Under the pieces are notes generated by a model. That model was given only the letters and a program-made list of their open reading frames with translations. It was not told the DNA's origin and searched no databases. From Candidatus Nanosyncoccus sp. (GTDB lineage Bacteria > Patescibacteriota > Saccharimonadia > Saccharimonadales > Saccharimonadaceae), in NCBI GenBank assembly GCA_045618065.1, contig JAZLJU010000026.1:1-48448 (forward strand): a stretch of DNA of 48,448 nt, given 5' to 3'. Positions 835-25,034 of the stretch are shown piece by piece. Both the position numbers and the translations under genes were made by a program. Numbering within the stretch: the first letter of the stretch is position 1; each line of letters starts with the position of its first letter.

Positions 835-944
835 GAAAGTAAAAACCCTTTTGAGGGACATATGCGACGACGGGAGCATACGCAGCGAGGAGCCCCGTAA
901 CGACGGGCGCGACGAAGCGTCCCGAAAAAGCGGTTTTTGCTTTC
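835..944 (+). repeat. structured palindromic element copy E1 (intergenic)
   Basis: terminal stem gaaagtaaaaacc-cttttGAgggac / gtcccGAaaaag-c-ggtttttgctttc; core shares gggagc and gagccccgtaacgacgggcgcga with E3. Confidence 0.85.
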
Positions 945-978
945 CCGAATTATGCTATAATAGATAAAAAGGAGGAAA

Positions 979-1944
979 GTGAGCAAATTTGATGACCAAT
1001 ACATTGATTTATGCAAGCGTATCTTAACGCAAGGCGAAAAGATTACCAACTACAAAAAAACTGACGAGCGTAGCGCTAGTGTTTCTTCTGCTATCCCAGA
1101 TCATACTGCCCAAGCCACCTCTGGTTCGCGAACTATCCGCCTACCACATCAAGTCCTACAATTCGATTTATCCGAAGAATTCCCCATCCTCACCTCTAAA
1201 AAAGTTGCTTTTAAAACTGCTGTTTTAGAGATTCTCTGGATTTATCAAGTCGCCTCCAACGATGTTCGCTGGTTAAAAGACCGTAATATTAAAATTTGGG
1301 ACGAATGGCGCATCGCCGAAGATGGTACTTATCAGGAAAAAAATATCAATCAAATTTTCGCCACCAATCACCCCAATGAGCCATTTGAAGATTTTGCGCA
1401 TACTATTGGCACAGCCTATGGGTGGATTGTTAAAAAATATCACTTAATCGAAAATTTAATTGAAACACTGAAGAAAAACCCCGGTAATCGCCGCATGGTC
1501 TTATCTCTCTGGCAAAATGAGTGGCTAGAAACCGCCGCTCTACCTAGCTGTGTTTGGAATTCCCAATGGAATCTCATTGATGGTCGTCTCAATCTACTAG
1601 TCACTTCTCGTTCCTCTGACGTACCTCTAGGTTTACCTTTCAATGTAGTGCAATATGCTGTTTTATGCCATTTAATAGCTCAATCTATTGGGGCCAAACC
1701 AGGTCAATTTACTTTTATTACTAACGACGCCCATATTTACGAAAACCAAATCGACGGCATTAAAGAACAAATTTTCCGCTATGACGAAGCCAAAAAATCC
1801 GGTACCCTACCGAAAACGCCAAAATTATGGCTTAATCCAGAAATTAAAGATTTTTACGCTTTCGACAACTCTAAAGAGCTTAAAGATATCAAATTAGAAA
1901 ATTATCAACATTTAGGCGCTATCAAAATGCCAGTTACGGAGTAA
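979..1944 (+). CDS. thyA: thymidylate synthase
   Basis: FPILT, ALPSC active-site motif, RSSDVPLGLPFN, DAHIYENQ; GTG start with GGAGG SD. Confidence 0.96.
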   Translation: MSKFDDQYIDLCKRILTQGEKITNYKKTDERSASVSSAIPDHTAQATSGSRTIRLPHQVLQFDLSEEFPILTSKKVAFKTAVLEILWIYQVASNDVRWLKDRNIKIWDEWRIAEDGTYQEKNINQIFATNHPNEPFEDFAHTIGTAYGWIVKKYHLIENLIETLKKNPGNRRMVLSLWQNEWLETAALPSCVWNSQWNLIDGRLNLLVTSRSSDVPLGLPFNVVQYAVLCHLIAQSIGAKPGQFTFITNDAHIYENQIDGIKEQIFRYDEAKKSGTLPKTPKLWLNPEIKDFYAFDNSKELKDIKLENYQHLGAIKMPVTE

Positions 1945-1945
1945 A

Positions 1946-2422
1946 ATGAGTTTCAGTATTATTGCCTGTATTGGAAAAAATCACGAATTAGGGTTAAAAA
2001 ACGACCTAGTTTTTCACATTAAGCGCGATATGCAATTTTTCCGCCAAACTACGCTAAATCATTCTGTTGTCATGGGATTAAACACCTTTAAAAGCCTCCC
2101 AAACGGGGCACTAAAAAATCGCAAAAACTATGTTATCACCTCTCACCCAGAACTTTTGCCAGAAAATATTGAGCCAATTACCAATTTGAACGCTTTTATC
2201 AAAAATCACCCAAGTGAGGAAATTTTTGTCATTGGCGGCGCAACAATTTACAAAGAATTTTTGCCTTTTTCTGATAAATTATACCTAACAGAAGTTGACA
2301 AAACCACCACCGCTGACGTCTTTTTCCCTAATTTCGACAAAGAAAAATATGATAAAATGATTTTAGAAGAGGGAGAAGAAAATGGAATAAAATTCACCAT
2401 TTCTAAATATATCATTAAATAG
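1946..2422 (+). CDS. folA: dihydrofolate reductase
   Basis: VVMGLNTFKSLP, LKNRKNYVIT, FVIGGATIY, ADVFFP; directly after thyA. Confidence 0.95.
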   Translation: MSFSIIACIGKNHELGLKNDLVFHIKRDMQFFRQTTLNHSVVMGLNTFKSLPNGALKNRKNYVITSHPELLPENIEPITNLNAFIKNHPSEEIFVIGGATIYKEFLPFSDKLYLTEVDKTTTADVFFPNFDKEKYDKMILEEGEENGIKFTISKYIIK

Positions 2423-2430
2423 GAGAAGAA

Positions 2431-3795
2431 ATGGATACAATTTTTAATTTAATTAACGAAGAAAAAAACCGCCAATCAGAGGGCCTAGAGTTAATTCCTA
2501 GCGAAAACTACGTTTCAAAAGAGGTTTTGCAAGCTATGGGCTCAATTTTAACTAATAAATATTCCGAGGGTTACCCAAGTTTTGAAGGTATCGGCTGTGA
2601 TTCTACAGAGTGGGACGAAACTGAAATTGCTGAAAAAATCCTACCGAACTACCGCTATTACGGCGGACAAACCAACATTGACCGCATTGAACGCTTAGCT
2701 ATTGATCGCGCTTGCCGCTTATTCGGCGCCGACCACGCCAACGTTCAGCCGCACTCTGGTGCCAATGCTAACGAAGCCGTCTATTTTGCCTGGTGCGAAC
2801 CGGGCGACAAAATTTTAGGCATGTCCCTGCCGGCTGGTGGCCATCTTACTCATGGCTCACCAGTCACACGCTCTGCTAAAATTTATAATTTTATATCTTA
2901 TGGCGTTACCGAAGATGGCGATATTAATTATGAAGAATTAGAGAAAAAAGCATTAGAAGAACAGCCAAGAATCATTCTAGTTGGCTATTCTGCCTTTATG
3001 AAAATTCCAGATTTTGCTCGTATCGCTAAAATCGGTGCATTAATCCCTAACTGTCTACTTATGGCCGATATGGCTCATGTTGCTGGCCTAATTGCTGGCG
3101 GAGTCCACCCTAATCCTCTAGAATTTGGCTTTCACGTCATGACTACTACCACGCATAAAACTTTGCGCGGCCCTCGAGGCGGACTAATCCTATCAAATGG
3201 GAATATTGCTTCCCCTCTTAAAAAACCCGAAAAAACTCTAGAAAATATCCCTATTTTAATCGACCGCGCAGTTTTCCCAGGTACACAAGGTGGCCCTTTA
3301 GAGCACGTCATAGCCGCTAAGGCTGTAGCTTTCAGTGAAGCTTTAAAGCCAGAATTCAAAACTTACGCCAAAAATATCGTAGAAAATGCCAAAGTTCTAG
3401 CCACAGAATTACAGAATCTAGGCTTCATTTTACAGGGCAACGGCACTAAAAACCACTTGATTCTAGCAGATATAGAAAAAAGTTTCGGTTTCGATGGTAA
3501 ATTTTATGAAAACGCTCTAGATATGGTTGGTCTAACGCTCAATGCCAATTCCCTCCCTAGAGAAAAGATTGCCGCCTTCCGTCCATCGGGAGTCAGATTA
3601 GGAACACCAGCTATTACTACGCGCGGACTCGGCCCTAAAGAAATGAAACTCCTCGCTCACTGGATGAAACAAGTCGCCGATATCTGTAAAAAAGCTAAGA
3701 ACGAAGAAAATCTTGCAAATTATCAAGAGGAACTTGATAAAATCCACAACGAAGTAAAAGACCTCGCTTCAAAATTCCCTATTCCAAGCGTCTAA
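2431..3795 (+). CDS. glyA: serine hydroxymethyltransferase
   Basis: LIPSENY, NKYSEGYP, NVQPHSG, GGHLTHG, TTTTHKTLRGPRGG. Confidence 0.97.
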   Translation: MDTIFNLINEEKNRQSEGLELIPSENYVSKEVLQAMGSILTNKYSEGYPSFEGIGCDSTEWDETEIAEKILPNYRYYGGQTNIDRIERLAIDRACRLFGADHANVQPHSGANANEAVYFAWCEPGDKILGMSLPAGGHLTHGSPVTRSAKIYNFISYGVTEDGDINYEELEKKALEEQPRIILVGYSAFMKIPDFARIAKIGALIPNCLLMADMAHVAGLIAGGVHPNPLEFGFHVMTTTTHKTLRGPRGGLILSNGNIASPLKKPEKTLENIPILIDRAVFPGTQGGPLEHVIAAKAVAFSEALKPEFKTYAKNIVENAKVLATELQNLGFILQGNGTKNHLILADIEKSFGFDGKFYENALDMVGLTLNANSLPREKIAAFRPSGVRLGTPAITTRGLGPKEMKLLAHWMKQVADICKKAKNEENLANYQEELDKIHNEVKDLASKFPIPSV

Positions 3796-3835
3796 AATTG
3801 TATTTTTATACCGCCCGTGATATAATAACAGTAAT

Positions 3836-3911
3836 GGGGCGTTAGCTCAGCTGATAGAGCGCGGCATTCGCATTGCCGAGGTCGCGGGTTTGATTCCCGC
3901 ACGCTCCACCA
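3836..3911 (+). tRNA. tRNA-Ala (anticodon CGC)
   Basis: cloverleaf GGGGCGT/ACGCTCC with G3.U70, anticodon loop TTCGCAT, encoded CCA. Confidence 0.93.
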
Positions 3912-3992
3912 TTTTTTTGCTTTTTTATAAAAAATATGGTATAATGTAAAAAATACTAGTTCTTTAACAGAAAAAAAGGGGGGTAAGAAAAA

Positions 3993-4589
3993 ATGTCAAA
4001 GAAGAAGACAAATGAGGAAATGATTATAATCCTCAAGAAAAAAATAGTGGAATTAGGGCATATTCCTACTATGCTAGAAGCTGATTGCGAAAATCTTTCG
4101 CCGAGATCAGCTGTTTTTGTGAAACGATTTGGCAGTTGGAATAAAGCCATCGAAGCCACTGGCATAACATTTCCTGACGATGATAAAAATTGTTGGGATA
4201 AAAAATCCATTACAGATGGGTTAGTTCGTCTTACAAAATACGACGAGCATGTCCCTAGTAAGAAGGAAATAAATAAATGTAATTATTTACCTTCTTACGC
4301 AATAGTGATAGAAGTCTTCGGATCGATAGAGGCAGCTTTTATTGCGGCCGGCATCAAACGAAGACCCTGTACTAAATCAGAAGTGACTACAGCATTAATT
4401 AGCTACTTCGAAGAAACTGGGCAGGTCCCAACAATAGTGGATGCTCGTTGTAACAAAGCTTTACCATCCTATGCTATAACAGTAAAGCTATTCGGTGGAT
4501 GGAATAAAGCCATCGAGGCTGCCGGATTACCAGTTAACAAACCTGGTTATCCTATCAGATATTATCCAAAGAACGCAAAAAAAGGATAA
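3993..4589 (+). CDS. protein made of three homing-endonuclease-associated repeats (putative DNA-binding), no nuclease domain seen
   Basis: three units with the pattern 'PT/PS...LPS...FGSWNKAIEAAG'. Confidence 0.7.
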   Translation: MSKKKTNEEMIIILKKKIVELGHIPTMLEADCENLSPRSAVFVKRFGSWNKAIEATGITFPDDDKNCWDKKSITDGLVRLTKYDEHVPSKKEINKCNYLPSYAIVIEVFGSIEAAFIAAGIKRRPCTKSEVTTALISYFEETGQVPTIVDARCNKALPSYAITVKLFGGWNKAIEAAGLPVNKPGYPIRYYPKNAKKG

Positions 4590-4657
4590 ATAGAGCCAGA
4601 GGGAACCCTCTGGCTTATTTTCTGTCACAAAAAATAACCCCCTAAGGGGTTATTTTT
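4588..4657. terminator. two adjacent hairpins between convergent genes (intrinsic terminators)
   Basis: agccagagg-gaac-cctctggct followed by T run; aaaaataacccc-ctaa-ggggttattttt. Confidence 0.75.
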
Positions 4658-5057
4658 AACGTTTGCTGAACTGCTCACGTTTACGAGCCGAACGCAAACC
4701 GTATTTTTTGCGTTCCTTCTCACGTGGATCACGTTTAATCATACCAGCCTTCTTAAGAACTGGTCGCAAATCTGAAGCTTCAGTTACTAAAGCTTTAGAA
4801 ATTGCAAGTTTGATCGCATCAACTTGACCAGCTAAACCACCACCTTTCACAAGAATAGTAATGTCATATTCCTTTTGTTTATTAGCTAGTGCTAATGGAT
4901 CAGTAATTTCTGCTAAGTAGGTCTTATTACCAGATAAATATTCCAAAGCTGGCTTATCGTTAATGGTAATTTCACCCTTACCCTTATACAAACGAGCGGT
5001 TGCTGTAGCGGTTTTGCGACGACCTAAACCGTATGTATATTTCTTTGCTGTAGCCAT
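4656..5057 (-). CDS. rpsI: 30S ribosomal protein S9
   Basis: GRRKTATA, GGGLAGQ, ERKKYGL, QFSKR. Confidence 0.98.
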   Translation of the reverse strand: MATAKKYTYGLGRRKTATATARLYKGKGEITINDKPALEYLSGNKTYLAEITDPLALANKQKEYDITILVKGGGLAGQVDAIKLAISKALVTEASDLRPVLKKAGMIKRDPREKERKKYGLRSARKREQFSKR

Positions 5058-5482
5058 TATTTAATCTCCTTTGGGGATTGAGCTGTATGTGTATGCTCCG
5101 ACCCTGCAAACACCCTGAGTCTTTCCAAACGATCTGCTGCCAATTTATTTTTCGGCATCATTCCCTTTACAGCCTCGCGAATTACACGCGCTGGATCTTT
5201 TTCCAAGACTTCTTCTAGCTTTAATTCCTTAATTCCACCAGGATAACCGCTATGACGATAGTATTTTTTCTGCACCATCTTATCACCAGTCACCATTATA
5301 TTTTTAGCGTTAACCACTACTACATAGTCACCGTTATCGATATGTGGAGTATAAGTAACTTTGGACTTACCCATTAATTTATCAGCAATTACAACTGCCA
5401 ATTTACCAAGTGGCATAGTTTGCGCATCAATTACCCACCATTCACGCTTAATTTCTGCGCTTTTTTGAGAATAAGTTTTCAT
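5057..5482 (-). CDS. rplM: 50S ribosomal protein L13
   Basis: WWVIDA, YTPHIDNGDYVVVVNA, HSGYPGG. Confidence 0.98.
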   Translation of the reverse strand: MKTYSQKSAEIKREWWVIDAQTMPLGKLAVVIADKLMGKSKVTYTPHIDNGDYVVVVNAKNIMVTGDKMVQKKYYRHSGYPGGIKELKLEEVLEKDPARVIREAVKGMMPKNKLAADRLERLRVFAGSEHTHTAQSPKEIK

Positions 5483-5877
5483 TATTTATCCTCCTTTTTT
5501 GAAGTATCGACATCTAAATTAATCTCGTCGACAAAGCTAATCGTGCCCATTTCGGCATTATCGCCGCGACGATAGCCAGAATGCTCAATACGTAAATATC
5601 CCGAATCGCGTTTGATTTGTGGTGCGATCACGTCAATTAGCAAACGTGCAGCTTCCAAATCATTCAAACGGGCAATGATTAAACGACGATTAGCTAAACC
5701 TCCCTTACGAGCCAAAGTAATCAACTTCTCTGTCGAACGACGAATTTCTTTAGCGCGTGCAAGAGTAGTATTAATAGATTGATATTTAATGAGGGAGCAC
5801 ATCAGCCCACGAGTAAGTGCCAACCTCTGATCTGTTTCTCGGCCGAATTTGCGACCTTTATATCCGTGGCGATGCAT
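5482..5877 (-). CDS. rplQ: 50S ribosomal protein L17
   Basis: MHRHG..RKFGR, TTLARAKE, RRGDNAEM; follows rpoA. Confidence 0.97.
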   Translation of the reverse strand: MHRHGYKGRKFGRETDQRLALTRGLMCSLIKYQSINTTLARAKEIRRSTEKLITLARKGGLANRRLIIARLNDLEAARLLIDVIAPQIKRDSGYLRIEHSGYRRGDNAEMGTISFVDEINLDVDTSKKEDK

Positions 5878-5878
5878 T

Positions 5879-6829
5879 TTAAAAATTTAACTCCGTTAAC
5901 TTTTCTTTTACTTCGTCTAACGCTTTTTGACCAAAACCTTTGAGTTCTTTAAGATCGGTCTCAGAAAGAGTAATTAAATCTCTTACGGTCTTAATATCAT
6001 TATTAAGAAGCGCGTTAGCCGTACGAGCCGACAAATCTAATTCTTCAATTGAAAGCATTAAACCTGGGTCGTTTTCTTCTTCATTAGCACCTGGCGCTGG
6101 ACTAGATTCGACCTTAGTACTGCCAGCAAGCGCTGTATATTGATTTACTAAAATTGCCGCAGCCTCTTCAAAGGCATCCTTCGGGGTAATAGTACCATCA
6201 GTGTCTATCGTTAAAGTCAATTGTTGCAAATTAGTATCTTGCCCGACACGAGTATTTTCTACCTTATAGCGAACTCGAAGAACTGGAGTAAATACCGCAT
6301 CGATTGCAATCATATCGCTATGTAGTCTATCTGCCGCAGCTTGTTCAATAGTCAAATAACCACGACCAGATTCCACTACGAAGTGCATCTTAAGCACATA
6401 CTTTGGATCGTCAATGTGGCAAATTACTTGATTAGGGTTTGCGATTTCAACTTCTGCTGGAAGTTTAATATCGCCAGCTACCACGCGCTTGTCGCCATCT
6501 TTTTCAGATTGCTTATCACCCTTCATCTCTAAGTCCAACTCTACTGGTGCATCTGTATGAACCTTGAAACGAATATTTTTCAAATTCAGGATCATGTCCA
6601 CCACATCTTCACGTACACCAGGAATGGAAGTAAACTCATGTGTAGCACCTTCAATTGAAAAAGCAGTAATTGCAGCACCCTTAACGCTAGAAAGCAACAC
6701 GCGTCGGAGAGAATTGCCCAAAGTGTTACCATAGCCAGGATAAAGTGGCTTAATTACAAACTCAGCACTTGTTTTGCTAAGTTCTTTCACATTATCTAAT
6801 TTTGCTTCATGAATATTTTTTGTTGTCAT
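5879..6829 (-). CDS. rpoA: RNA polymerase alpha subunit
   Basis: GYGNTLGNSLRRVLLS, HEFTSIPGVREDV, LSARTANAL. Confidence 0.98.
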   Translation of the reverse strand: MTTKNIHEAKLDNVKELSKTSAEFVIKPLYPGYGNTLGNSLRRVLLSSVKGAAITAFSIEGATHEFTSIPGVREDVVDMILNLKNIRFKVHTDAPVELDLEMKGDKQSEKDGDKRVVAGDIKLPAEVEIANPNQVICHIDDPKYVLKMHFVVESGRGYLTIEQAAADRLHSDMIAIDAVFTPVLRVRYKVENTRVGQDTNLQQLTLTIDTDGTITPKDAFEEAAAILVNQYTALAGSTKVESSPAPGANEEENDPGLMLSIEELDLSARTANALLNNDIKTVRDLITLSETDLKELKGFGQKALDEVKEKLTELNF

Positions 6830-6840
6830 ATTCTTTCTCC

Positions 6841-7458
6841 TTAGCGTGAGTAATACTCAACGATTAATTGTTCGTTAATGCCAGCTTCTGCTTCTTCGCG
6901 TTTAGGAAGACCAGTCGCTTCGATTTTCATTTTCTTCGCATCGACCTTTAACCATGAAAGCGCCGTTTGATTTGCTGCTCCGATTACGTTTGGAAGATTT
7001 TTGAAATATTCTGTTTTAGCGGATTTAGGACGAACTTCCAAAACATCACCCGGGTTCAAACGAATCGATGGAATATCAACTCGATGACCATTTAATAGAA
7101 AATGTCCATGCGATACCAATTGTCTTGCTTGACGACGAGTCAAAGCAAAACCAGCACGATAAATCACGTTGTCTGCTCTGCGTTCCAAAAACTCTAAGAG
7201 TTTTTCACCTGTCAAGCCTTCAGCTTTTTGTGCTTCAGCCATCAACTTTGCAAATTGTTTTTCTAGTAAGCCATACATGCGGCGCACTTTTTGCTTTTCG
7301 CGAAGCTGCGTCAAATATAGACTGCCGCCGCGCACGCGCATACCGCTATGTTCACCTGGAATACCAGATTTTTTCGCCATCACTTTGTGGGCTTTTGGCG
7401 CTAATGCCACGCCCTCACGACGGCTTTGTTTTACGATTGGAGAATGATCCCTAGCCAT
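6841..7458 (-). CDS. rpsD: 30S ribosomal protein S4
   Basis: QLREKQK, LERRADN, ARQLVSHGH, IVEYYSR. Confidence 0.98.
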   Translation of the reverse strand: MARDHSPIVKQSRREGVALAPKAHKVMAKKSGIPGEHSGMRVRGGSLYLTQLREKQKVRRMYGLLEKQFAKLMAEAQKAEGLTGEKLLEFLERRADNVIYRAGFALTRRQARQLVSHGHFLLNGHRVDIPSIRLNPGDVLEVRPKSAKTEYFKNLPNVIGAANQTALSWLKVDAKKMKIEATGLPKREEAEAGINEQLIVEYYSR

Positions 7459-7895
7459 TATGGTTTCCTTTCTCCCTTCGGTCGCACACCACCATGTGCA
7501 ATCGGGGTTACATCTGTAATACTATCAATTTTAATACCTACTGTAGAAATTGCTCGTACCGCTGCATCACGCCCTAAGCCGATGCCTTTAACAAAAACAT
7601 CGACCGAATTTAGAGAATGATTCTTTTTTGCATATTCAAGAGCTTTTTCTGCTGCTACGCCAGCCGCAAAAGCGGTGCCTTTTTTAGACCCACGAAAACC
7701 ATTTGCGCCCGCGCTAGATGCCGACAAAACTCCACCATTTCTATCAGACACCGTAACAATAGTATTATTGAAGGTAGCCTGGATATGGACTTGCCCAGCA
7801 TTAACGATGCGTTTAGCTTTCTTGCCTTTTTTAGCTTTTGGTGCTGCGACTTCAGTAGTTTCCACTGCAGTATTTTTAATTTCTTCCTCTGCCAT
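7458..7895 (-). CDS. rpsK: 30S ribosomal protein S11
   Basis: HIQATFNNTIVT, GFRGSKKGT, DVTPIAHGG. Confidence 0.98.
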   Translation of the reverse strand: MAEEEIKNTAVETTEVAAPKAKKGKKAKRIVNAGQVHIQATFNNTIVTVSDRNGGVLSASSAGANGFRGSKKGTAFAAGVAAEKALEYAKKNHSLNSVDVFVKGIGLGRDAAVRAISTVGIKIDSITDVTPIAHGGVRPKGERKP

Positions 7896-7904
7896 ATTAT
7901 CTCC

Positions 7905-8291
7905 TTAAGTCTTGCTCGCTGCTTTAGGTTGTGCACCACCGACCGCGATCGCCTTACCCTTACGTGTACGTGCATTCGTACGAGTACGTTGGCCGTTGAC
8001 TGGTAATTTAGCCTTGTGGCGCATTCCTTTGTAGGAATTAATATCCTTTATACGTTTAATATTATTGCTCACGAGACGTCGTAAATCACCCTCAACGCGA
8101 TATTTCTTGGAAATAATATCGTTAAGTTTTTGTTCGTCAGCCTCGGTGAGATCTTTCACCCGAGTGGTAGGCTCGATTTTAGCCTCCGCAAGGATGGCTT
8201 TTGAAGTTGTTCGACCAATTCCGTAAATATAAGTCAGTGCAATCCAGACTTGTTTATCGGAAGGTATTACAACACTAGCTATTCTAGCCAT
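7905..8291 (-). CDS. rpsM: 30S ribosomal protein S13
   Basis: [26 protein letters not shown]. Confidence 0.98.
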
Positions 8292-8294
8292 ATT

Positions 8295-8411
8295 TTAACC
8301 CTGCCTTTGCTTATTTTTAGGTTTTTTCTTATTGATAACTCTTAGCACACCTTTACGGCGAACCAAAATGTCATCAGGCGAGATTTTCTTAACACTAGCA
8401 CGTACTTTCAT
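8295..8411 (-). CDS. rpmJ: 50S ribosomal protein L36 (Cys-free); not in ORF track
   Basis: manual translation [38 protein letters not shown]; canonical position between infA and rpsM. Confidence 0.95.
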
Positions 8412-8552
8412 GTGTTAAAATTATCCTTTCCTATTATGGATTTTAGTTTTTAGAATATAACTTTACGTTTTAAAAACATAAAATCATATTTTTCCGATTT
8501 TTACCTCTGTTATTTCTAACGCGTAAAAATCTTAACTAAAACCCCGTTAATA

Positions 8553-8777
8553 TTAATCTTTGAGTCGGAAACTGATTCTGCCCTTTGTAAGATCGTAAGG
8601 GGTTAACTCAACCTCGACTCTGTCGCCCGGAACCAAGCGAATATAGTTCTTTCGCATGCGTCCGCTCATGTGGGCAACAATAATATGACCATTCTCGAGT
8701 TCAACCCGAAATTGGGTATTCGGTAGAGCCTCAACAACACTACCTGTGAGCTTAATCACTTCCTTTTGACTAGCCAT
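8553..8777 (-). CDS. infA: translation initiation factor IF-1
   Basis: [34 protein letters not shown]. Confidence 0.98.
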
Positions 8778-8829
8778 AAATTACCTTTTCATTTTACCAT
8801 AGTCTTTTCGTGTTGTAAAGACTTTTATT

Positions 8830-9519
8830 TTATTCAACCAAAACAGCTCGTGTGAACTGACGAGATAGATAAGTTTGCTGGGCCTGCGACCATTCGCCAG
8901 TACAAGTAATCAGAGTTACAGACTCCCTACCAAGCTCCGGAGATTTCATAGCCTCATTCATATATTTATTTGCTTCTTCTAGCAGAACTGCCGTGTTTTC
9001 CACTACTTCATATCTGTAAATTATTCCGTCGCCACGTTCAACTTTTATGATATCACCTCTAGCTAAATTTGGCAGATCTTTAAAAACACCGTAAACGTGT
9101 GGCCCGCCATTATGGCCATCTATTACCATAGTACCACCCAGACCTGGCTTGCCAGAACTTTCATACCATCCCACGTCAAAAATATTACGAGGTGTATCTA
9201 ACTCTCCCTCCGCATTTACCCCCATTGCTAAAATTCGAGAATTCACAATGCCAAGTTTTTCAATGCTCAAATAACGTGGTCTATCTGGTGCAACCGTATA
9301 CTCTCTTACTACATCTTCGCTAGGTTTTTCCTCATCTAGCTCCTCGCCGGTGTCAATTACTTCGACAATCGCCCGCTCGCTACCTTCCTTAGAACTATAA
9401 TAATCATTTTCAAAAACCATTATTCGTATCAAGAACACCAAAAACAAAACTATAAGCACCGAGTAAATTATCCACTTTATAATTGTACGCCAACTTCTAA
9501 TTTTCAAGCTCATCACCAA
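8830..9519 (-). CDS. class F sortase
   Basis: N-terminal TM, VGWY, PG..GT.VIDGHN, LITC, downstream Arg. Confidence 0.85.
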   Translation of the reverse strand: MVMSLKIRSWRTIIKWIIYSVLIVLFLVFLIRIMVFENDYYSSKEGSERAIVEVIDTGEELDEEKPSEDVVREYTVAPDRPRYLSIEKLGIVNSRILAMGVNAEGELDTPRNIFDVGWYESSGKPGLGGTMVIDGHNGGPHVYGVFKDLPNLARGDIIKVERGDGIIYRYEVVENTAVLLEEANKYMNEAMKSPELGRESVTLITCTGEWSQAQQTYLSRQFTRAVLVE

Positions 9520-10930: not shown

Positions 10931-10972
10931 AATACCTCTTAATAACTTTTTTCATTATATCACGTAGCTTAA

Positions 10973-11004
10973 AAAAAATAAAGGGCTTTCGCCCTTTATT
11001 TTTT
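10973..11004. terminator. intrinsic terminator after rpoC
   Basis: aaaaaataaagggc-tttc-gccctttatttttt. Confidence 0.8.
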
Positions 11005-11010
11005 GAAGTT

Positions 11011-14844: not shown

Positions 14845-14845
14845 T

Positions 14846-17800: not shown

Positions 17801-18223
17801 TACGCCAGCCGAACGAATCAACTGTGATACAATCACACGTTCAGTCCCGTTAATAATAAATGTCGCACGATCAGTCATCCATGGATAATCGCCAAAATAA
17901 AAATCCTGCTCTTTTTTCTTGCCCGTCACTTTGTTTTCGAGCTCTACTAGAACATGCAAAGGCGCCTCATAGGTCGCTAGATTATACTTAGCTTCCTGCT
18001 CAGTCTCCTTTGGTTCCTTAAAATAATAATCTTTGAACCTTAAAGCAAATTTTTGCCCAGTGTAATCCTCGATTGGATTTAGCTCAGCAAAAACTTCCCG
18101 TAGTCCATTTTCGACAAAGTCCGCCCACGAATCTTTTTGGTGTGCTGTAAGATCCGGAATTGGCAAAGCTTGGTCACCTTCGGTGAAAAATTTTCTTTCA
18201 CCTAACTTCGGTTTTGTAGCCAT
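14846..18223 (-). CDS. rpoB: RNA polymerase beta subunit
   Basis: FIINGTERVIVSQL, GDKLAGRHGNKG, GGQRFGEMEVWALEAYGA. Confidence 0.98.
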   Translation of the reverse strand: MATKPKLGERKFFTEGDQALPIPDLTAHQKDSWADFVENGLREVFAELNPIEDYTGQKFALRFKDYYFKEPKETEQEAKYNLATYEAPLHVLVELENKVTGKKKEQDFYFGDYPWMTDRATFIINGTERVIVSQLIRSAGVFFNATTIGLKNYYGAKVIPGRGAWLEFETAANGAIFVKIDRRRKIPVTTFLRALGLSKSEIKEKFAAIDKGEKSYIEATFDKDTTSNQGEALLEVYRRLRPGDLATVENARSMIEKVFFDPKRYDYSKVGRFKINRRLNLETPNEPEYRTLQIDDMVAIISEIIRLNITQEAPDDIDSLSNRRIKCVGELVQRQFRLGMLRLQRNILDRMSMANPEEVTPSQLLNSRPVVAAVKEFFATSQLSQLMDEVNPFSELAHKRRLSSMGPGGLTRERAGFDVRDAHPTHYGRICTVETPEGGNVGLVLNLATYAKINEYGFIEAPYRVVKNGKVTDEVIYMDADTENDMVIADASVKLDKNGKFKEEWVSARVHGAPAQVEASRVTHIDAAHKEILGASASLIPFVEKNRVDRSLMACAMQKQAVPLLKQDNPVVGTGIEREIAKNTSQLVMASGNGVVKKADGESVIVSYEKGGDKEYKLQHFEKTNDDRCYNQHTVVARGQKVKKGDTLIEGASVNDGELALGRDLLVAFMPWRGYNMDDAIVISNRLVEDDTLTSINIKDFDVEVRETKLGPEQVTRDIPNVSEHSLRHLGEDGIVVVGSEVKNGDILVGKITPKGEQELSSEERLLRAIFGEKAKDVRDTSVRMNGTSTGKVVGVRVYTREQGHDLKAGVIMQIKIFVAEMRKIGVGDKLAGRHGNKGVVSRVLPVEDMPFMEDGTPIDIVLSPMGVPSRMNLGQLFETHLGMAARALGYKVATPSFNGVPDEIISDELEKAGFDRDGRVQLYDGLTGEPFHQRTSVGVMHMLKLHHMVEDKIHARSTGPYTMVTQQPLGGKAQNGGQRFGEMEVWALEAYGAATTLQEMLTIKSDDVYGRAKAYEAIIKHEPIEGPKLPEGFNVLVKELQGLGLKVDLLDHGESSDASDVIEKTSKEIEKDRDDQAIYDQHKKDAEPQILDLDDAEAEAMMAEEGIEIKEVDDDGIVDLGEEF

Positions 18224-18382
18224 TCTACCTCTTTTTTATTAGTGTTATTAATCTTAGCGCTGAAGATTACTGCCCGACTCGCTATCTAGATTCGCCACTG
18301 CTAGATATTACACAAAAAATCAAGCACACTACTTCTTGAATCAATCTTACCACACTTTTTCGCAAAACACAACCCCAAAATC

Positions 18383-18474
18383 CAAAAAAGCACCCCAACG
18401 GAAGGTACTTTTTTAGACATAGATAAACTCTCAACTTTTTGTGTTTCAAGCTGACTCGCAGTTAGTTAGCTTAT
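18383..18474 (-). ncRNA. candidate ~90 nt small RNA
   Basis: own promoter (TTGCAA 18507-18502, TATAAT 18485-18480), 5' hairpin aagcuaacu/agucagcuu, terminator hairpin plus U6; no family recognised. Confidence 0.4.
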
Positions 18475-18518
18475 GCTTAATTATACGCGCTATTTTTAAA
18501 ATTGCAAGTACTTTTTCA

Positions 18519-18549
18519 AAAAAATAGACGCTTTTTTGCGCCTATTTTT
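18519..18549 (-). terminator. terminator after KH-domain gene
   Basis: aaaaatagacgc-tttttt-gcgcctattttt inverted repeat. Confidence 0.65.
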
Positions 18550-18567
18550 AAAATGTAGATAATTCAC

Positions 18568-18987
18568 TTATATATCTAAATCGTCCAAATCTGCCAATTC
18601 AGCACGAGTTTTCTCGGCCAACTCAGACTTTTCCTCTGACACGTCAGCTTCTTCAATTTCTTCAATTTCTTCAGCTTCCTCAACTTCTTTCGGTTCCTCA
18701 TGATCTTCACTTTTAACTACACTTTCATGTTCACCATCTTCATCGGTATTCACGATCTTCAAATTATAACGCGCGTCTTGCTTAGTCCCAAGAGCTCTAA
18801 GAAGCACGCGAATAGCTTGCGCCGTTACGCCTCTCTTACCAATAACTCTACCCACGTCTGATGGATCTACATTCAAAGACAACAATACACCTTTTTCATC
18901 AATTTTACGTTCGACAGAAACTTCTTCGGGATTATTTACTAAAGTTTTTACGATATATTCTACGAATTGCTGGTCGATAGTCGCCAT
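18568..18987 (-). CDS. khpA: KH-domain RNA-binding protein (KhpA/YlqC family) with acidic tail
   Basis: DVGRVIGKRG GxxG loop; conserved position after rpsP. Confidence 0.85.
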   Translation of the reverse strand: MATIDQQFVEYIVKTLVNNPEEVSVERKIDEKGVLLSLNVDPSDVGRVIGKRGVTAQAIRVLLRALGTKQDARYNLKIVNTDEDGEHESVVKSEDHEEPKEVEEAEEIEEIEEADVSEEKSELAEKTRAELADLDDLDI

Positions 18988-19067
18988 ATTTCCTCCATTT
19001 TTTTATTATTACAATAACAATTATAGCATAAAAAATAGTCTTATGAAAAGACTATTTTTTAAAAATT

Positions 19068-19529
19068 CTATTCAGCTTTTTCTTCTGTGGGAGCTTCAGT
19101 CTCCGCCGAAGTTTCAGCTTCCACTGGAGCCTCAGCTTCAACCGGAGCCGCAGTTTCTTGTGAATCTTCTGCTGGCGCCTCTACTTCAGCCGGTGCTTCT
19201 GTTTCTGGTTCTTCTTTTGGCTGATTTTTGCGCAATTTATCTGCGTGCTTAGCTGCAGCCTTTTTGACTGGCGCCTCTTTTACCCACTTCGGTAATTTAA
19301 CACCATTCTTCTTCAAAATAAACGCCACGCGCGAAGAAGGCTGCGCGCCATTAGATAAATATTTTTCCACCAACTTTTTATCCAAAGTTAAAGCTTTAGT
19401 TTGTGGGTTATAGTTGCCGACCTCAGCCACTACGCGCCCAGAAAGTGGGTGGCGCTGGGATTCTTGGACGACTATCCGGTACGTAGGATAATGCGCCCGG
19501 CCTTTACGTTGCATGCGAATCGCTAGCAT
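19068..19529 (-). CDS. rpsP: 30S ribosomal protein S16 with Ala/Glu/Pro-rich tail
   Basis: MLAIRMQRKG, YRIVV, GNYNP, GAQPS. Confidence 0.96.
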   Translation of the reverse strand: MLAIRMQRKGRAHYPTYRIVVQESQRHPLSGRVVAEVGNYNPQTKALTLDKKLVEKYLSNGAQPSSRVAFILKKNGVKLPKWVKEAPVKKAAAKHADKLRKNQPKEEPETEAPAEVEAPAEDSQETAAPVEAEAPVEAETSAETEAPTEEKAE

Positions 19530-19647
19530 TTTTTCTCCTTAAATTATTAACTTCCCTATTATATCATATCTTTGCAAAAAAATAAACCCCAAAATCAAAA
19601 AGCAGGGCATAACACCATTATACCATAATTAAGTAAAAAAGTCAACT

Positions 19648-20352
19648 TTATACTTTATTTTCCTTCTTGTATTTTTTTACACCCTCGCGTGCAGCTTCAG
19701 TTTGTGCCTCTTGTTTAGAGTGTCCAGTCCCAACACCTTTCAAAGCCTCACCTACATACACGCCAACTGTAAACATCTTATTATGGTCTGGCCCTTCTTC
19801 TTTCATGGTTCTATAAATAGGAGTTTCTCCATCAATTTTTTGCGCCAATTCCTGTACATAAGATTTTGGATCACGCCAAGATTCTTCTTCTAAAACCGTA
19901 TTAATTTTTACCAAAATGTGTTTTGCAATAAAATCTTGCGCCGCATTATATCCTTGGTCTAGATAAATAGCACCAATCACCGCCTCAAAACAATCTGCCA
20001 AAATCGAATCATGTGCCCGCTCTGAGCCCATCTTTTCACCTTTAGACATTCGCACTAACGGCGCATAGCCAAGCTCTTTACCAGCATCGCCAATCGATTC
20101 GGTTCGCACCAAAGCCGCCCTCACTGCAGTCATAATTCCCTCAGGTTCATTGTAATTTTGATACAAAAAATCTGAAGAAACTAATTCTAGAACTGCGTCA
20201 CCTAAAAATTCCAACCTTTCATTATGTTCGTGAGTTTTACGATGCTCATTCACATAGCTTCGATGAGTTAACGCCGTCACTAATAGGTTTATGTCGTTAA
20301 ATTCAAAACCCAATTTTTCTTTAGCGAATTCTTTATATGGTGTATAATCCAT
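19648..20352 (-). CDS. rnc: ribonuclease III (likely start ATG 20352)
   Basis: HNERLEFLGDAVL signature, dsRBD; GGAGG SD before ATG 20352. Confidence 0.96.
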   Translation of the reverse strand: MDYTPYKEFAKEKLGFEFNDINLLVTALTHRSYVNEHRKTHEHNERLEFLGDAVLELVSSDFLYQNYNEPEGIMTAVRAALVRTESIGDAGKELGYAPLVRMSKGEKMGSERAHDSILADCFEAVIGAIYLDQGYNAAQDFIAKHILVKINTVLEEESWRDPKSYVQELAQKIDGETPIYRTMKEEGPDHNKMFTVGVYVGEALKGVGTGHSKQEAQTEAAREGVKKYKKENKV

Positions 20353-20359
20353 TTTCCTC

Positions 20360-21046
20360 CTAAAAATCTCCCGCACGAATTTTCTTTTTCGCGATCAACA
20401 TTAATTTTTCAATATCTTCATATTCAATCAAATCTAACGCCTCAGCAAACGGGAACCATGCAATTCCCTTCATCCACTTCTCTGGAATTGGTTGCTCCTG
20501 ATCATCTAATTCCTGCACCAGATAAATCTGTGTTGTCATTAAAACCAATTTATCTAAACGGCGATATTTAAACTGAATTTTCCCAAGCCAAGTCAAAATC
20601 GAAACATTTTTAAGACCAGTTTCCTCGGCAATTTCTCTACGTGCTGTAATTTTTGCCGTCTCTCCAGGCTCAATATGACCTTTCGGGATCGTCCAACGAC
20701 CTTTAGAATCTTGAATTAATAAAATTTCGATATCTTTTTTGTCCTTCGTCATACGAAAAACTATGCCGCCCGCAGTTGGCTCCCTTACAATCGCTTGTAT
20801 AGCCGATTTTTTACGAAAAACAGCCGATTTAATTTTATCTAGAGCCGTCTCTTTTACTCGATCCTCAGGCAACGCCTCGGGAACTTTAAAAGCCCGCTTT
20901 GCAGTCGGTTCTACTTGAAGTTTGTTCGCCGACTTAAGCTGACTTACTGTCCGCTTTAGCGGCTTTGCCGCCAGATTTGCCTTTTCCTGTTGACCCATCG
21001 GCGGTTTCGGTATTCTTTGTGACCTTACTATTTTTTTCTGGTCCAT
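20360..21046 (-). CDS. NUDIX hydrolase (start uncertain)
   Basis: PKGHIEPGE...[10 protein letters not shown] Nudix box. Confidence 0.85.
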
Positions 21047-21482
21047 TTTCTTTAATTCCTAATTGTTTATAAGCTGTTCCGAGCACTCCGTTCACAAATT
21101 TCGACGAATTTTCTGAACCAAAAGCTTTGGCTAGCTCTACAGCTTCATTAATAGCTACTTTCGGAGGAATAGTATTACCACATTCCGAAAGTTCGTATAA
21201 ACCCATCCTTAAAATATTTCGATCAATTGCCGCAATCGAACTGATTGGCCATTCTGGCGCAATTGGGGCTAATACTTTATCTAATGTTTCAAAATTCTCC
21301 GCTACTTCATGCGTTAAATTATACACAAATTCCGTATCGCCCAATGTTTTTTCATAAGGTTCGATGTTTTTCGCGACAATTACATCTAAATCGACGTCAG
21401 GGTCTTTTGCTAGAGTCCTAAGTTCATATTCGTATAAACTTTGTAGAACAATTACTCTTCCTAAATGTCGATTACTTGCCAT
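20934..21482 (-). CDS. nusB: transcription antitermination factor NusB
   Basis: [32 protein letters not shown]. Confidence 0.95.
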
Positions 21483-21525
21483 TTTAATATTCTATCCTTT
21501 TTTTATTATCCCCCTTGATATTTTT

Positions 21526-21699
21526 CTAAGCGCTCTTTTTAGCTTTTTTAGTTTTAACTTTCAAATTTGGGGTAGTCTTCTTAGTTTCAAAAACTTTCAC
21601 CGGCGAAGTTTTATTAACTCGTCGTGCCAGTTTAAGTCGAAGATGACTCCTACGAAGCCCTGTTTTGCGCGGACTACTTTGTTTCTTAGGTTCAGGCAT
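21526..21699 (-). CDS. rpmF: 50S ribosomal protein L32 (Cys-free); not in ORF track
   Basis: manual translation MPEPKKQSSPRKTGLRRSHLRLKLARRVNKTSPVKVF...; AAGGAG SD; upstream of nusB-rnc. Confidence 0.85.
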   Translation of the reverse strand: MPEPKKQSSPRKTGLRRSHLRLKLARRVNKTSPVKVFETKKTTPNLKVKTKKAKKSA

Positions 21700-21778
21700 T
21701 TTGCTCCTTAAATTTAATATGATATTTTTCTCATTTTACCATGAGATTACTACTTTTTCAACCCCAAAATCCGCGACT

Positions 21779-21985
21779 TTACTTTTCTAGTTCCTTTAGT
21801 GCTCGTTTAATTGCTGGCCGATCAAACCCCACAATTCGCTCGCCGTTAATTTCCGTCACCGGCACCGTAGAGATATCTGACTCCTTTGTGGCGTCCATCT
21901 CTTGATATTTAATCCCCTTCTCATCTAGCCAATCCATTAGGGCGTGGCAATAAATACAAGTTGGTGTAGTATAAACTTTTATCAT
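21779..21985 (-). CDS. glutaredoxin/NrdH-like protein
   Basis: CIYC, TVPV, IVGFD. Confidence 0.9.
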   Translation of the reverse strand: MIKVYTTPTCIYCHALMDWLDEKGIKYQEMDATKESDISTVPVTEINGERIVGFDRPAIKRALKELEK

Positions 21986-22488
21986 ATTTCCATTATACCA
22001 TACATCGCAATACCAGCCGCTACTGACACGTTAAAAGATTCTTTTTGCCCACGCATCGGTATTTCTAAAAACAGATCAATTATATCATAGAGTGAATAAT
22101 CTATCCCGTGCACTTCCTCACCCAAAATCAGCACGACCTTAGATTTTAATTTATCTTTTACTTCTTTACTTCCCATTTTATAGAGCCGCGCATCATCAAT
22201 ATTATTCTCCAAGCCCACAATTTGCCACCCCTCATTTTTTAACTTTTTCACCTCTGTAATTATATCACCAGATGAATAAATTTTTAGCATATCTTCGGCT
22301 CCAAGAGCAGTCTTATGAATCTCTTTATCAAGTTTCTCACGCAAATGTGGTAATAAATTCTTATCATGCACTCTAGGTGTATAACCAGACAAAATCACTC
22401 GTTCCACTCCAAATCCTTCCGCCGTCCTAAGAATCGCCCCCACGTTATAACATGACCGTATATTATCTAACACCAAAATCATTTCCAT
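21982..22488 (-). CDS. TrmH/SpoU family RNA methyltransferase (likely start ATG 22488)
   Basis: LDNIRSCYNVGAILRTA, LGEEVHG, IPMRGQKESFNVSVAAGI. Confidence 0.9.
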   Translation of the reverse strand: MEMILVLDNIRSCYNVGAILRTAEGFGVERVILSGYTPRVHDKNLLPHLREKLDKEIHKTALGAEDMLKIYSSGDIITEVKKLKNEGWQIVGLENNIDDARLYKMGSKEVKDKLKSKVVLILGEEVHGIDYSLYDIIDLFLEIPMRGQKESFNVSVAAGIAMYGIMEI

Positions 22489-22493
22489 TACCA

Positions 22494-22518
22494 AATTATA
22501 CCAGATTATGGTATAATT
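22494..22518. promoter_or_regulatory. back-to-back extended -10 promoters for the methyltransferase gene and leuS
   Basis: aattatacca-gatta-tggtataatt perfect inverted repeat; TGGTATAAT 6-7 nt before each ATG. Confidence 0.75.
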
Positions 22519-22524
22519 GTCTCT

Positions 22525-25026
22525 ATGAAAAGATATGAGCCCTTGGCAATTGAAAAAAAATGGCAAGAAAAATGGGAAAAAACTCAGGCCTTTAAAGCGA
22601 CTGAGAATTCCGACAAACCCAAGATGTTCCTCGCCGAAATGTTCCCTTACCCATCTGGCGCCGGCTTGCACGTGGGCCATGTTCGCAACTTTACTATTGT
22701 GGATGTGCTTACTCGTTTTTATACTCAGCAAGGGCTAAATGTCTTGCGACCGTTCGGCTACGACACTTTTGGACTTCCAGCGGAAAATTATGCTATCAAA
22801 ACCGGCACCGCACCCCAAGAAGTCACTAAATCGAATATCGCCAATTTTCGCAACCAAGCCAAGCGCTTAGGCTACGCTATCGACTGGTCTCGAGAAATTA
22901 ATACTTCTGATCCGGAATATTACAAATGGACTCAGTGGTGCTTTTTACAACTTTATAAAAAAGGCTTAGCCTATCAAAAAGAATCCTATCAATGGTGGTG
23001 CCCAGTCGACCAAACAGTTTTGGCTAATGAGCAAGTCGAAAATGGCTGTTGTTGGCGCTGCGGTCACGAAGTTGAAAAGAAAAAAATGAAACAATGGTTT
23101 TTTAAAATCACCGAATACGCCGATGAATTACTCGAAGAAATTGACAACCTAGATTGGCCCGAAAAAATCAAAACTATGCAAAAAAACTGGATCGGACGCT
23201 CAGTGGGCGCTGAAATTGACTTCCCAATTGCTACTAAAGTTGTTTCTGCGAGCGTTCGCGACAACGGGAGCGAACGACGAAGCGAGCCCTATGACGATAG
23301 GCACGAGCAAGGAGGCGAGCAAAAACAACTTTATAATAATCGTAAAGTTAAAGTCTTTACCACTCGCCCAGACACCATTCTCGGCGCCACTTTCCTAGTT
23401 GTTGCCCCAGAATACCCAGCATTAGAAACCCTTCTTACCGACGATACTTACGACCAAGTTTTAGCCTATAAAGCTGCCGCTCTTAAAAAATCCGAAATCG
23501 AACGCCAAGAAAACAAAGAAAAAACCGGCGTCTTCACTGGTTCTTATGCTATCAATCCAGCTACCAAAGAAAAAATCCCTATCTGGGTAGCAGATTATGT
23601 TTTGTCTGGCTATGGTACTGGTGCAATTATGGCTGTACCTGCCATGGACGATCGCGACCGCGAATTTGCCGAAAAATTCAATTTGCCAATTATAGAAACT
23701 GAACTTGTCGACCGCGACACCTACGGAACCCCAAAAACTACTTACAAAATGCGCGACTGGCTAATTTCACGCCAACGCTATTGGGGTTGTCCAATTCCAA
23801 TCGCTTATGATAAAGATGGCAATGCTCACCCAATTCCAGAAGATCAACTCCCGGTTTTGATTCCAGAAGTTAAAGACTACAAACCAGACAATTCTGGACA
23901 TTCAGCCCTAGCTAAAGCTAAAGATTGGCTCAAAGTTAAAATCCCTGTTAAAGATCCAAAAACTGGCGAAATTCACGAAGAAGAAATGACTAGAGAAACC
24001 GATACTCTAGACGGCTACGCTTGTTCGTCTTGGTATCTCTGGCGTTACGCTTCCCCGCACGACAATAATCACGCCTGGGATCCAGAAGCTATCAAATATT
24101 GGGCACCGACCGACATTTACGTAGGCGCTGATCACGCCGTCGCTCATCTACTTTATATCCGTTTTTGGTGTAAATTCTTCGCCGATGAAGGATATTTACC
24201 TTTCCGTGAACCGGTTAAAAAATTAATCTATCATGGCTACATTAATGCGCCTGATGGTAAAAAAATGTCTAAATCTAAAGGTAACGTTATCGACCCGCTA
24301 GATGTAATCGATGAGGGATATGGCGCCGATACTCTACGCACCTACGAAATGTTCATCGGTCCAGTCGAACTCGATGCTGCCTGGAACCCTCGTTCAGTCG
24401 GCGGAGTTTATAGATTTTTGAACCGCTGTTATACGCTTTGTTTCGAGAATAAGAATAAAGATATTGATGAGGGTGTTTCTAGAGAGCTTCCGCGACCAAC
24501 GGGGAGCGGCTTGAGCGAAGTGAGCCCCGTAACGACGGGCGCGAACGAGCGTCTCTCTAAAACATCCGATTCAATATCCAATACTACAGTTATAAGAAAT
24601 AAAACCATCAAAAAAGTTACCGAGGATATCTATCGTCAAAACTTCAACACCGCTGTCGCAGCATTAATGGAATACGTCAACGAACTTTATAAAACTACAC
24701 CAGAAACCGAAGATATCATAACCTTAGCAAAATTATTAAAGCCTTTCGCTCCGCATTTGGCTTCTGAAATGCTCGAATTCTTAAATTCCAACGATGAATG
24801 GCCAAAATGGGACGAAAAATTTCTTATCTCTGATACCGTAGAAATTATCGTTCAGGTCAACGGCAAATTACGTGGCAAATTGTCTGTCTCTACCAATGAT
24901 TTAGGAAACGAAGAGAAAATCATAAATCTCGCAAAAAACGATCAAAAAATCCAAAAACACTTAACCGACAACATCAAAAAAACCATCTTTGTCAAAAAAG
25001 CTAAAATTTTAAATTTTGTAGTATAA
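22525..25026 (+). CDS. leuS: leucyl-tRNA synthetase with two in-frame palindromic insertions
   Basis: MFPYPSG..LHVGH, FTTRPDT, WLISRQRYWG, KMSKS. Confidence 0.97.
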   Translation: MKRYEPLAIEKKWQEKWEKTQAFKATENSDKPKMFLAEMFPYPSGAGLHVGHVRNFTIVDVLTRFYTQQGLNVLRPFGYDTFGLPAENYAIKTGTAPQEVTKSNIANFRNQAKRLGYAIDWSREINTSDPEYYKWTQWCFLQLYKKGLAYQKESYQWWCPVDQTVLANEQVENGCCWRCGHEVEKKKMKQWFFKITEYADELLEEIDNLDWPEKIKTMQKNWIGRSVGAEIDFPIATKVVSASVRDNGSERRSEPYDDRHEQGGEQKQLYNNRKVKVFTTRPDTILGATFLVVAPEYPALETLLTDDTYDQVLAYKAAALKKSEIERQENKEKTGVFTGSYAINPATKEKIPIWVADYVLSGYGTGAIMAVPAMDDRDREFAEKFNLPIIETELVDRDTYGTPKTTYKMRDWLISRQRYWGCPIPIAYDKDGNAHPIPEDQLPVLIPEVKDYKPDNSGHSALAKAKDWLKVKIPVKDPKTGEIHEEEMTRETDTLDGYACSSWYLWRYASPHDNNHAWDPEAIKYWAPTDIYVGADHAVAHLLYIRFWCKFFADEGYLPFREPVKKLIYHGYINAPDGKKMSKSKGNVIDPLDVIDEGYGADTLRTYEMFIGPVELDAAWNPRSVGGVYRFLNRCYTLCFENKNKDIDEGVSRELPRPTGSGLSEVSPVTTGANERLSKTSDSISNTTVIRNKTIKKVTEDIYRQNFNTAVAALMEYVNELYKTTPETEDIITLAKLLKPFAPHLASEMLEFLNSNDEWPKWDEKFLISDTVEIIVQVNGKLRGKLSVSTNDLGNEEKIINLAKNDQKIQKHLTDNIKKTIFVKKAKILNFVV
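23235..23333 (+). repeat. structured palindromic element copy E2, in frame in leuS (99 nt)
   Basis: taaagttgtttctgc / gcaaaaacaacttta terminal stem; same core architecture as E1 and E3. Confidence 0.85.
24460..24578 (+). repeat. structured palindromic element copy E3, in frame in leuS
   Basis: gatattga/tcaatatc and gggtgttt-c-tagagag/ctctcta-aaacatcc stems; gagccccgtaacgacgggcgcga identical to E1. Confidence 0.85.
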
Positions 25027-25034
25027 AAGCAAAG

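Follow-up and report, generated by a model that had tools for sequence, protein, structure and literature searches.

Rickettsia palindromic elements (RPEs) and the coding palindromes of Wolbachia and Methanocaldococcus are repeats of ~100-150 bp that form a long stem-loop, and the accounts drawn on here report no mover for them (PMC10969869, PMC2229807, PMC3733652). RPEs lie between genes or in-frame within conserved genes, with truB and tRNA synthetase genes recurring as hosts, and the same accounts ascribe to them terminal inverted repeats and a conserved peptide; the review passages cited give no tested mechanism for the movement of such coding palindromes (PMC2229807). Repetitive extragenic palindromes (REPs) of the CGTC-tagged kind, for which in-frame intragenic copies are known, apparently have no dedicated transposase (PMC3733652). 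In IS200/IS605 elements (IS608, ISDra2) and in the systems of REPs and REP-associated tyrosine transposases (RAYTs), strand-specific imperfect hairpins are linked to replication, IS608 and ISDra2 using the lagging-strand template (PMC6006769), and in large chromosomal integrons it is mostly the leading-strand template that holds the bottom strands of attC sites, an arrangement that limits excision (PMC8946536). Here we analyze three structured elements, E1, E2 and E3, in a 48,448-nucleotide stretch from Candidatus Nanosyncoccus sp. (contig JAZLJU010000026.1 of assembly GCA_045618065.1, positions 1 to 48,448; hereafter the window). E1 is intergenic, and E2 and E3 lie within leuS, the gene for leucyl-tRNA synthetase (LeuRS). 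The reading that we favor, on balance and with reserve, is that all three are copies of a GA-zipper double-hairpin core, a selfish, non-autonomous element whose mobile form is single-stranded DNA (ssDNA) at the replication fork.

On the tests run, the family works like an RPE and falls outside the tagged REPs, the IS200/IS605 elements and the attC sites. It resembles the RPEs and their Wolbachia and Methanocaldococcus counterparts in size, in its long stem-loop, in its intergenic or in-frame positions and in the host genes that recur. Three traits set it apart from RPEs as reviews describe them: outer arms that vary with the site and derive in part from host codons, the use of five reading frames, and an orientation linked to replication. 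Terminal inverted repeats common to the copies were not found, arm identity falling toward background past about 7 nt. The replication-tied orientation and the site-differing stems of ~22 bp go beyond the RPE descriptions cited. Unlike the CGTC REPs in the published account, it lacks the tag (the ends are unconserved, in contrast to the unpaired terminal GTAG or CGTC on the 20-40 bp unit of such REPs), is three to four times longer, and has its variable palindrome outside the two hairpins rather than between them, as in REP dimers. Its folding strand would match the leading-strand template, if the G-rich strand is leading, which is opposite to the arrangement given for IS608, and, unlike the situation for IS200/IS605 and RAYT, no Y1 transposase was found in the genomes that carry the family's sequence pattern. 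With the integron attC sites described in the source cited above, it shares structure conserved above sequence, recurrent bulge positions and polarity; unlike them, it has no conserved terminal boxes in the alignment and no cassette arrays, and its copies lie inside genes.

A dispersed family of structured elements

An earlier note on this DNA had described E1, E2 and E3 as folding alike into an outer stem and two hairpins, and all three are present with these hairpins. E1 (835..944, + strand) comprises a left arm (835..852), site-specific in its outer part, beyond a GA/GA step at 853-854; hairpin A with a tandem GA/GA (861..880); hairpin B (885..918), a double GA/GA zipper tipped by a 5-bp stem and a 4-nt loop; and a right arm (926..944) beyond the GA/GA at 924-925, all on the + strand. 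E2 (23235..23333) is 99 nt long, and E3 (24460..24578) has its hairpin A at 24490-24509 and the stem of hairpin B at 24526-24539, again all on the + strand.

The proposal that they represent a dispersed, strand-specific, non-autonomous family is borne out. A profile built from 13 seed copies found 17 copies in the 619-kb source genome, out of 17-18 counted there, 3 intergenic and 14 within long frames, in both orientations, and the iterated profile yielded 199 distinct copies in the fetched loci, with no match in a reversed-sequence control. The core measures 68-87 nt, roughly 75 nt. An exact 19-nt pattern occurs in the source genome and in 10 of 24 other genomes of the genus (11/25), and in none of 16 genomes from other families of the order. 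A GTDB-wide scan matched at least 126 stretches; among the 80 matches listed, 14 are labelled Ca. Nanosyncoccus, 60 Saccharibacteria, 5 unnamed bacterium and 1 Clostridiales, and their stated sources are mostly ruminant gut. Rfam covariance models gave no match over E1-E3 at E <= 1, consistent with the novelty suggested earlier, and no description of the hairpin-insert family was found in the open-access literature. When phages were searched for carriage, a 23-nt pattern gave no match and a 19-nt pattern four matches, none with the full fold.

We also note a single-hairpin GA-zipper subfamily with four matches in the source genome (C36:3086-3149, C37:2389-2455, C33:2724-2775 and C40:688-730), two of them intergenic and two in-frame; it also occupies leuS sites in relatives, and a motif scan for it gave no match. 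An unrelated AT-rich hairpin family has six intergenic copies with a conserved core in the same genome (C1:5214-5291, C1:6925-7002, C8:5554-5632, C18:1653-1729, C28:24908-24983 and C30:164-241). Its outer arms differ by site and are partly homologous and compensated, one of them holding a Shine-Dalgarno-like motif and a start codon, and five of the six copies have one polarity relative to skew. Long nested palindromes at C12:35488-35648 and C31:11062-11184 of the source genome belong to none of these families.

Fold and covariation

E1-E3 fold far beyond shuffled sequences on both strands, whether modelled as RNA or as DNA. As RNA, the z-scores of E1, E2 and E3 are -6.7, -3.1 and -4.5 on the + strand and -3.5, -3.8 and -3.7 on the - strand. 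The - strands thus fold too; the orientation of the strand that carries the GA steps (the GA strand) is described below.

The claimed covariation of the stems was examined in 67 E1/E2/E3-type copies, pattern-selected out of the 199, whose kinship inflates the signal. The named structure is paired in 93.6% of cells, against 85.9% after shuffling, and there are 79 double-sided changes against 22, a number reached in none of 500 shuffles and by none of the slid controls, all of which were lower. The closing pair alternates as reported, being C-G in 31, G-C in 19 and T-A in 7 of the 67 copies, and is unpaired in 10. Similarly, the RACG loops once thought to be fixed prevail without being invariant: in the 187 of 194 copies in which the hairpin B loop could be located, it reads AACG in 120 and GACG in 33, but GAAG in 26, AAAG in 6 and GGCG in 2. 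The GA/GA of the terminal stem is common, being usable as an anchor in 105 of 189 copies, but not universal; E3 has a Watson-Crick pair at the homologous position and its GA/GA further out. Of the two hairpins, B is the conserved one, and A differs from subfamily to subfamily. RNAalifold recovered hairpin B alone, since the alignment does not keep the outer stem in register.

Insertion into translated genes

E2 and E3 are not free-standing but are in-frame insertions in leuS (22525..25026, + strand; 833 aa, identified from Pfam and database labels). E2 lies at the start of the editing domain, and the LeuRS residues that match its 99 nt (241-273) have no counterpart in T. thermophilus LeuRS; together with a decayed outer stem it spans 23216..23350 (+), extending into conserved I-D-F and V-K-V codons. 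E3 occupies a loop that precedes the match to the anticodon-binding domain, within a LeuRS stretch (645-691) that is unaligned against the T. thermophilus enzyme. Elsewhere the window LeuRS is shorter than that of T. thermophilus, by ~40 residues at the end of the editing domain and ~50 before KMSKS, and the leuS open frames of the genus span about 750 to 1100 aa. A look-up of sequencing runs for positions 21000-26000 gave none, which carries no information on expression.

Both flanks match one source-genome protein in 138 of 194 copies (E <= 0.01), the remaining 56 being intergenic or having no host gene assigned. All but one of these 138 same-gene copies are in-frame without a stop, 93 in sense and 44 in antisense orientation; the last has its flanks in different frames. 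Five reading frames are used (by 60, 33, 22, 14 and 8 copies, one further copy being without hairpin B), and the sixth, which contains TAA or TGA, is used by none of the 138. The same host genes occur repeatedly across copies; from sequence motifs we take the further hosts to be valS, ileS, argS, dus, ychF, lepA, obgE, truB, mnmA and der.

In 175 LeuRS alleles, the two loops are either empty or filled by differing subfamilies in both orientations; they may also be tandem or doubly filled or nested, or have lost the core while the arms remain. Filled and empty states are scattered over a poorly resolved tree, and the closest LeuRS, 86% identical, is without the E2 core and keeps an E3-like insert. 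Identical cores at two sites in one gene bear different arms. Such a patchwork is what a mobile element under purifying selection produces, in parallel with the RPEs.

A pre-existing target hairpin or scar was considered as the cause of the hot spots and set aside, as unsupported at leuS site 1 and weak at site 2. The palindromicity of empty site 1 alleles is not above that of synonymous controls, and a pre-existing palindrome at p <= 0.05 was seen in 1 of 23 ingroup and 3 of 51 outgroup alleles. In the source genome, two gene copies that we label aspS-like (C14:538-596 and C16:203-274) share the left half of an insertion and differ in its right half; they may be strain variants or a recombined allele.

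Orientation follows replication

Third-position GC skew is very strong in the source genome, often 0.5-0.9 in magnitude. The majority strand of the window contig, which bears rpoA, rpoB and rpoC, is G-rich and is therefore taken as leading, as is usual for such skew; the + strand is C-rich, and the C-rich sense strand of the window leuS is likely lagging. Among the 105 of 138 same-gene copies that had sufficient flank, G-rich genes harbor 33 of the 34 antisense copies and C-rich genes 61 of the 71 sense copies (nominal Fisher 3e-17). Scored by local skew, the GA strand coincides with the C-rich strand in 135 of the 147 scorable copies (from a set of 196), and in the source genome it does so in 16 of 16; in leuS alone, 25 of 32 alleles obey this strand rule (p 0.0016, with orientation from a crude word count). 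The shared + strand of E1, E2 and E3, to which the earlier note had drawn attention, is real but reflects the replichore, since + is the C-rich strand of the contig. We also note that the leuS strand varies among relatives (41 G-rich, 65 C-rich), which suggests frequent inversions.

With G.T and A.C scored symmetrically, the GA strand shows more G.T than A.C in antisense copies (27:11), sense copies (28:21) and other copies (20:10). This excess and the skew-linked orientation indicate that the folding strand is fixed at the DNA level: orientation is tied to replication, not transcription. Since orientation tracks replication and the G.T excess stays on the GA strand in antisense copies, ssDNA is favored over RNA as the acting form. 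The polarity fits an insertion bias and a retention bias alike.

Site-specific arms, partly of host origin

The outer arms were measured in the 105 anchored copies, an anchor requiring 4 of the first 5 outer pairs. The outer stem has a median length of 22 bp and reaches at least 15 bp in 100 copies, falling below 10 bp in 3, while in 397 trials with arms swapped between copies, 39 attained 15 bp. The lengths form a sharp peak at 20-22 bp; pairing stands at 0.84 at position 20 and has sunk to 0.26 by position 24, the steep fall setting in past 21, and some arms extend to 30-45 bp. Single bulges cluster at positions 12-16 of the left arm, where they are mostly purine, and at 7-8 of the right arm, where they are mostly pyrimidine. 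For near-identical cores in different genes (42 non-independent pairs), the arms agree at 0.5-0.95 identity within the first 6-7 nt, a value that drops to 0.1-0.6 further out.

The origin of one arm can be traced at leuS site 1, where an arm often reaches conserved I-E-F codons and the opposite arm reads N-S-I, their reverse complement. Of 89 filled alleles, 19 have the N-S tail, which none of 80 empty alleles shows, and E stands on the left in all 19 N-S alleles but in 28 of the 70 other filled ones; the sole K-S allele has I-D-F, as predicted. As N-S-I is the reverse complement of the I-E-F codons and is confined to filled alleles, one arm at this site is an inverted copy of host codons. As a tendency, it is the 5' arm of the GA strand that carries the copy.

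Candidate movers and a tagged relative

The earlier note had looked to HUH enzymes for a cognate mover, a suggestion that is not supported: Y1_Tnp (PF01797) is found in 0 of 11 pattern-positive genomes, which are incomplete assemblies, and in 1 of 24 other genus genomes, and the polarity is opposite to the IS608 rule as stated in PMC6006769. IS110, TnpB and Prim-Pol were each found in 0 of 5 element-bearing genomes, and HNH in 2 of 5. Tyrosine recombinases, considered as possible IntI integrases and assigned at family level only, occur singly in four genomes and twice in G011, in frames of 316-381 aa. A reverse transcriptase (RT) of the kind found in diversity-generating retroelements (DGRs) is present in 3 of 5 element-rich genomes, namely the source genome and two of the four others (G006, where it adjoins thyA, and G019), and was not found in G011 and G012, which are 97% and 96% complete. 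The source genome holds a complete-looking DGR at C38:21750-25373, with an RT of 369 aa, an accessory-like open reading frame (ORF) of 276 aa, a 201-nt pair of template and variable repeats (TR/VR), 88% identical, and the C-terminus of a target gene. On inspection, the elements showed no resemblance to the TR/VR region.

A possible relative emerges from hairpin B of E1, whose zipper, in the E1 subfamily alone, equals letter for letter the stem of a GTCATT-tagged, dimer-forming repeat. Stretches with the double GA/GA zipper number at least 136 in IMG/VR, and 7 of 150 other Patescibacteria have it too; 86 of 148 distinct zipper matches have a GTCATT tag and an AATC tail; several tagged repeats dimerize around a variable palindromic spacer. 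The tagged repeat, which had no Rfam match in 20 loci, resembles the CGTC REPs and may be one of the four published CGTC families. The hexamer tag lies within 40 nt of 6 of 194 element copies (the scan covering GTCATT-type tags). The ORFs adjoining tagged repeats, 88 of the 112 listed having been scanned, include two small GIY-YIG proteins and no Y1_Tnp. The GIY-YIG genes, of 118 and 97 aa, abut GTCATT-tagged repeats in two other Patescibacteria (G105:C5 and G112:C7), and we treat them only as a lead to the mover. Small stand-alone GIY-YIG genes were not found in 25 genus genomes, where the matches sit in frames of 288-602 aa.

Proposed mechanism and alternatives

The core occupies many unrelated sites, and its gain, loss and replacement at the same sites are patchy. 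In the mechanism that we propose, the C-rich strand would be the nascent lagging strand, with the same sequence as the leading-strand template, and the folded GA strand would be the form handled, probably by a structure-specific enzyme acting in trans. Upon insertion or shortly thereafter, the 6-7 bp terminal stem of the core would prime a brief fold-back or template switch, copying ~15 nt of one host flank reversed over the other and so generating a site-specific arm; template switching can create stems in one step (PMC8794818). Purifying selection would spare only in-frame, stop-free events in tolerant loops, so that the same loops would be struck repeatedly. More speculatively, and with distinctly less confidence, we raise the possibility of an undescribed fork-coupled pathway in which structured single-stranded cargo is incorporated into the nascent lagging strand, where it serves as primer for a ruler-limited fold-back copy of ~15 nt of host sequence, each insertion writing its own terminal inverted repeat from the target. 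Such a pathway might serve at least two unrelated hairpin families and continually add loops of 25-35 residues to essential enzymes.

Several observations weigh against a fork-coupled, arm-copying element. The direction of copying is a mere tendency, the N-S tail being found in 17 of 28 antisense and 2 of 29 sense alleles, with 32 alleles lacking an assignment; the leuS allele L041 opposes it, and alleles at a methyltransferase site are mixed, several being opposite or ambiguous. Arms are not purely host-like either, as left-arm positions 8-14 are A-rich across copies, and some arm positions hold 0.4-0.6 identity between unrelated sites. The strand rule is violated by 12 of 147 copies, and by 3 of 7 at the dus site; the copies are related, which overstates the p-values, and leading and lagging are inferred from skew. 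At leuS site 2, empty alleles are palindromic at p <= 0.05 in 4 of 20 ingroup against 2 of 26 outgroup cases. The data contain no strain-level pair of empty and filled sites (the nearest LeuRS is 86% identical) from which junctions or a target duplication could be read, and no mover enzyme was found in the element-bearing genomes, all of which are incomplete assemblies.

Polarity and arms could also arise after insertion. We think it rather unlikely, though worth serious consideration, that unbiased insertion like that of REPs or miniature inverted-repeat transposable elements was followed by deletion of the copies that fold on the lagging-strand template and by lengthening of the arms through template-switch mutation. 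The published account of large chromosomal integrons ascribes the same attC polarity to limited excision (PMC8946536), core-deleted LeuRS alleles exist, template switching is described as both creating and maintaining stems (PMC8794818), and some arms do extend to 30-45 bp. Such a history is harder to reconcile with the sharp peak of arm length at 20-22 bp and the scarcity of arms below 10 bp (3 of 105), with the full arms already borne by identical, hence probably young, cores, and with bulges at fixed places (left 12-16, right 7-8). The strong polarity and conserved fold would also be expected of sites that serve the host, Ter-, KOPS- or Chi-like in being replichore-polarized, with a host protein binding them and host machinery spreading them, and the unrelated AT-rich family is also polarized (5/6) and likewise has site-specific arms. 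We nevertheless regard host-serving sites as improbable, given the patchy gain, loss, nesting and replacement, the restriction of the pattern to 11 of 25 genus genomes with none among 16 of other families, and the invasion of essential enzymes.

Two further alternatives seem to us very unlikely. The stable RNA folds, the covariation and the tandem G.A pairs, as well as the RNase III gene in the window and the position of E1 beside the thyA promoter region, would suit an element that acts as RNA, whether as a regulatory structure, a spliced-out mini-intron or a translationally skipped segment; but orientation tracks replication rather than the transcript, Rfam has no match, and the unused stop frame and the 137 of 138 copies in-frame would be unnecessary were the element removed from RNA. 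It is just as hard to credit that the host DGR reverse transcriptase makes the copies, with complementary DNA incorporated in the manner of Okazaki fragments. The RT is present in the source genome and in two of the four other element-rich genomes, and in sequence the GA strand corresponds to what would be the nascent lagging strand, but G011 and G012, nearly complete, yielded no RT, and the elements look unlike the TR/VR region.

The family offers ~200 copies and, at single sites, dozens of alleles that are independent of one another; together with its strong replication-linked polarity and a host origin that can be traced for part of the stem, these place direct constraints on mechanism. An episymbiont genome of 0.6-0.8 Mb repeatedly gains and loses peptide loops in tRNA synthetases and GTPases, and this turnover is relevant to protein evolution and to the alignments behind Patescibacteria phylogeny.

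Genomic context in the window

E1 is flanked by sortase and thyA genes that diverge on either side of it. By pattern match alone, a sigma-70 promoter-like site directed at the sortase gene (789..817, - strand, 12/12) lies immediately to its left, and extended -10-like and Shine-Dalgarno-like motifs of thyA (953..975, + strand) lie immediately to its right. Two long ORFs in the window, at 33946-37002 (- strand, 1018 aa) and 39773-40819 (- strand, 348 aa), are without a Pfam match at E <= 1e-5. The window also encodes, at 3993-4589 on the + strand and beside a tRNA gene (3836-3908), a 198-aa protein with two homing-endonuclease-associated repeats (PF18780, HNH_repeat), which is present in the source genome alone among five genomes.

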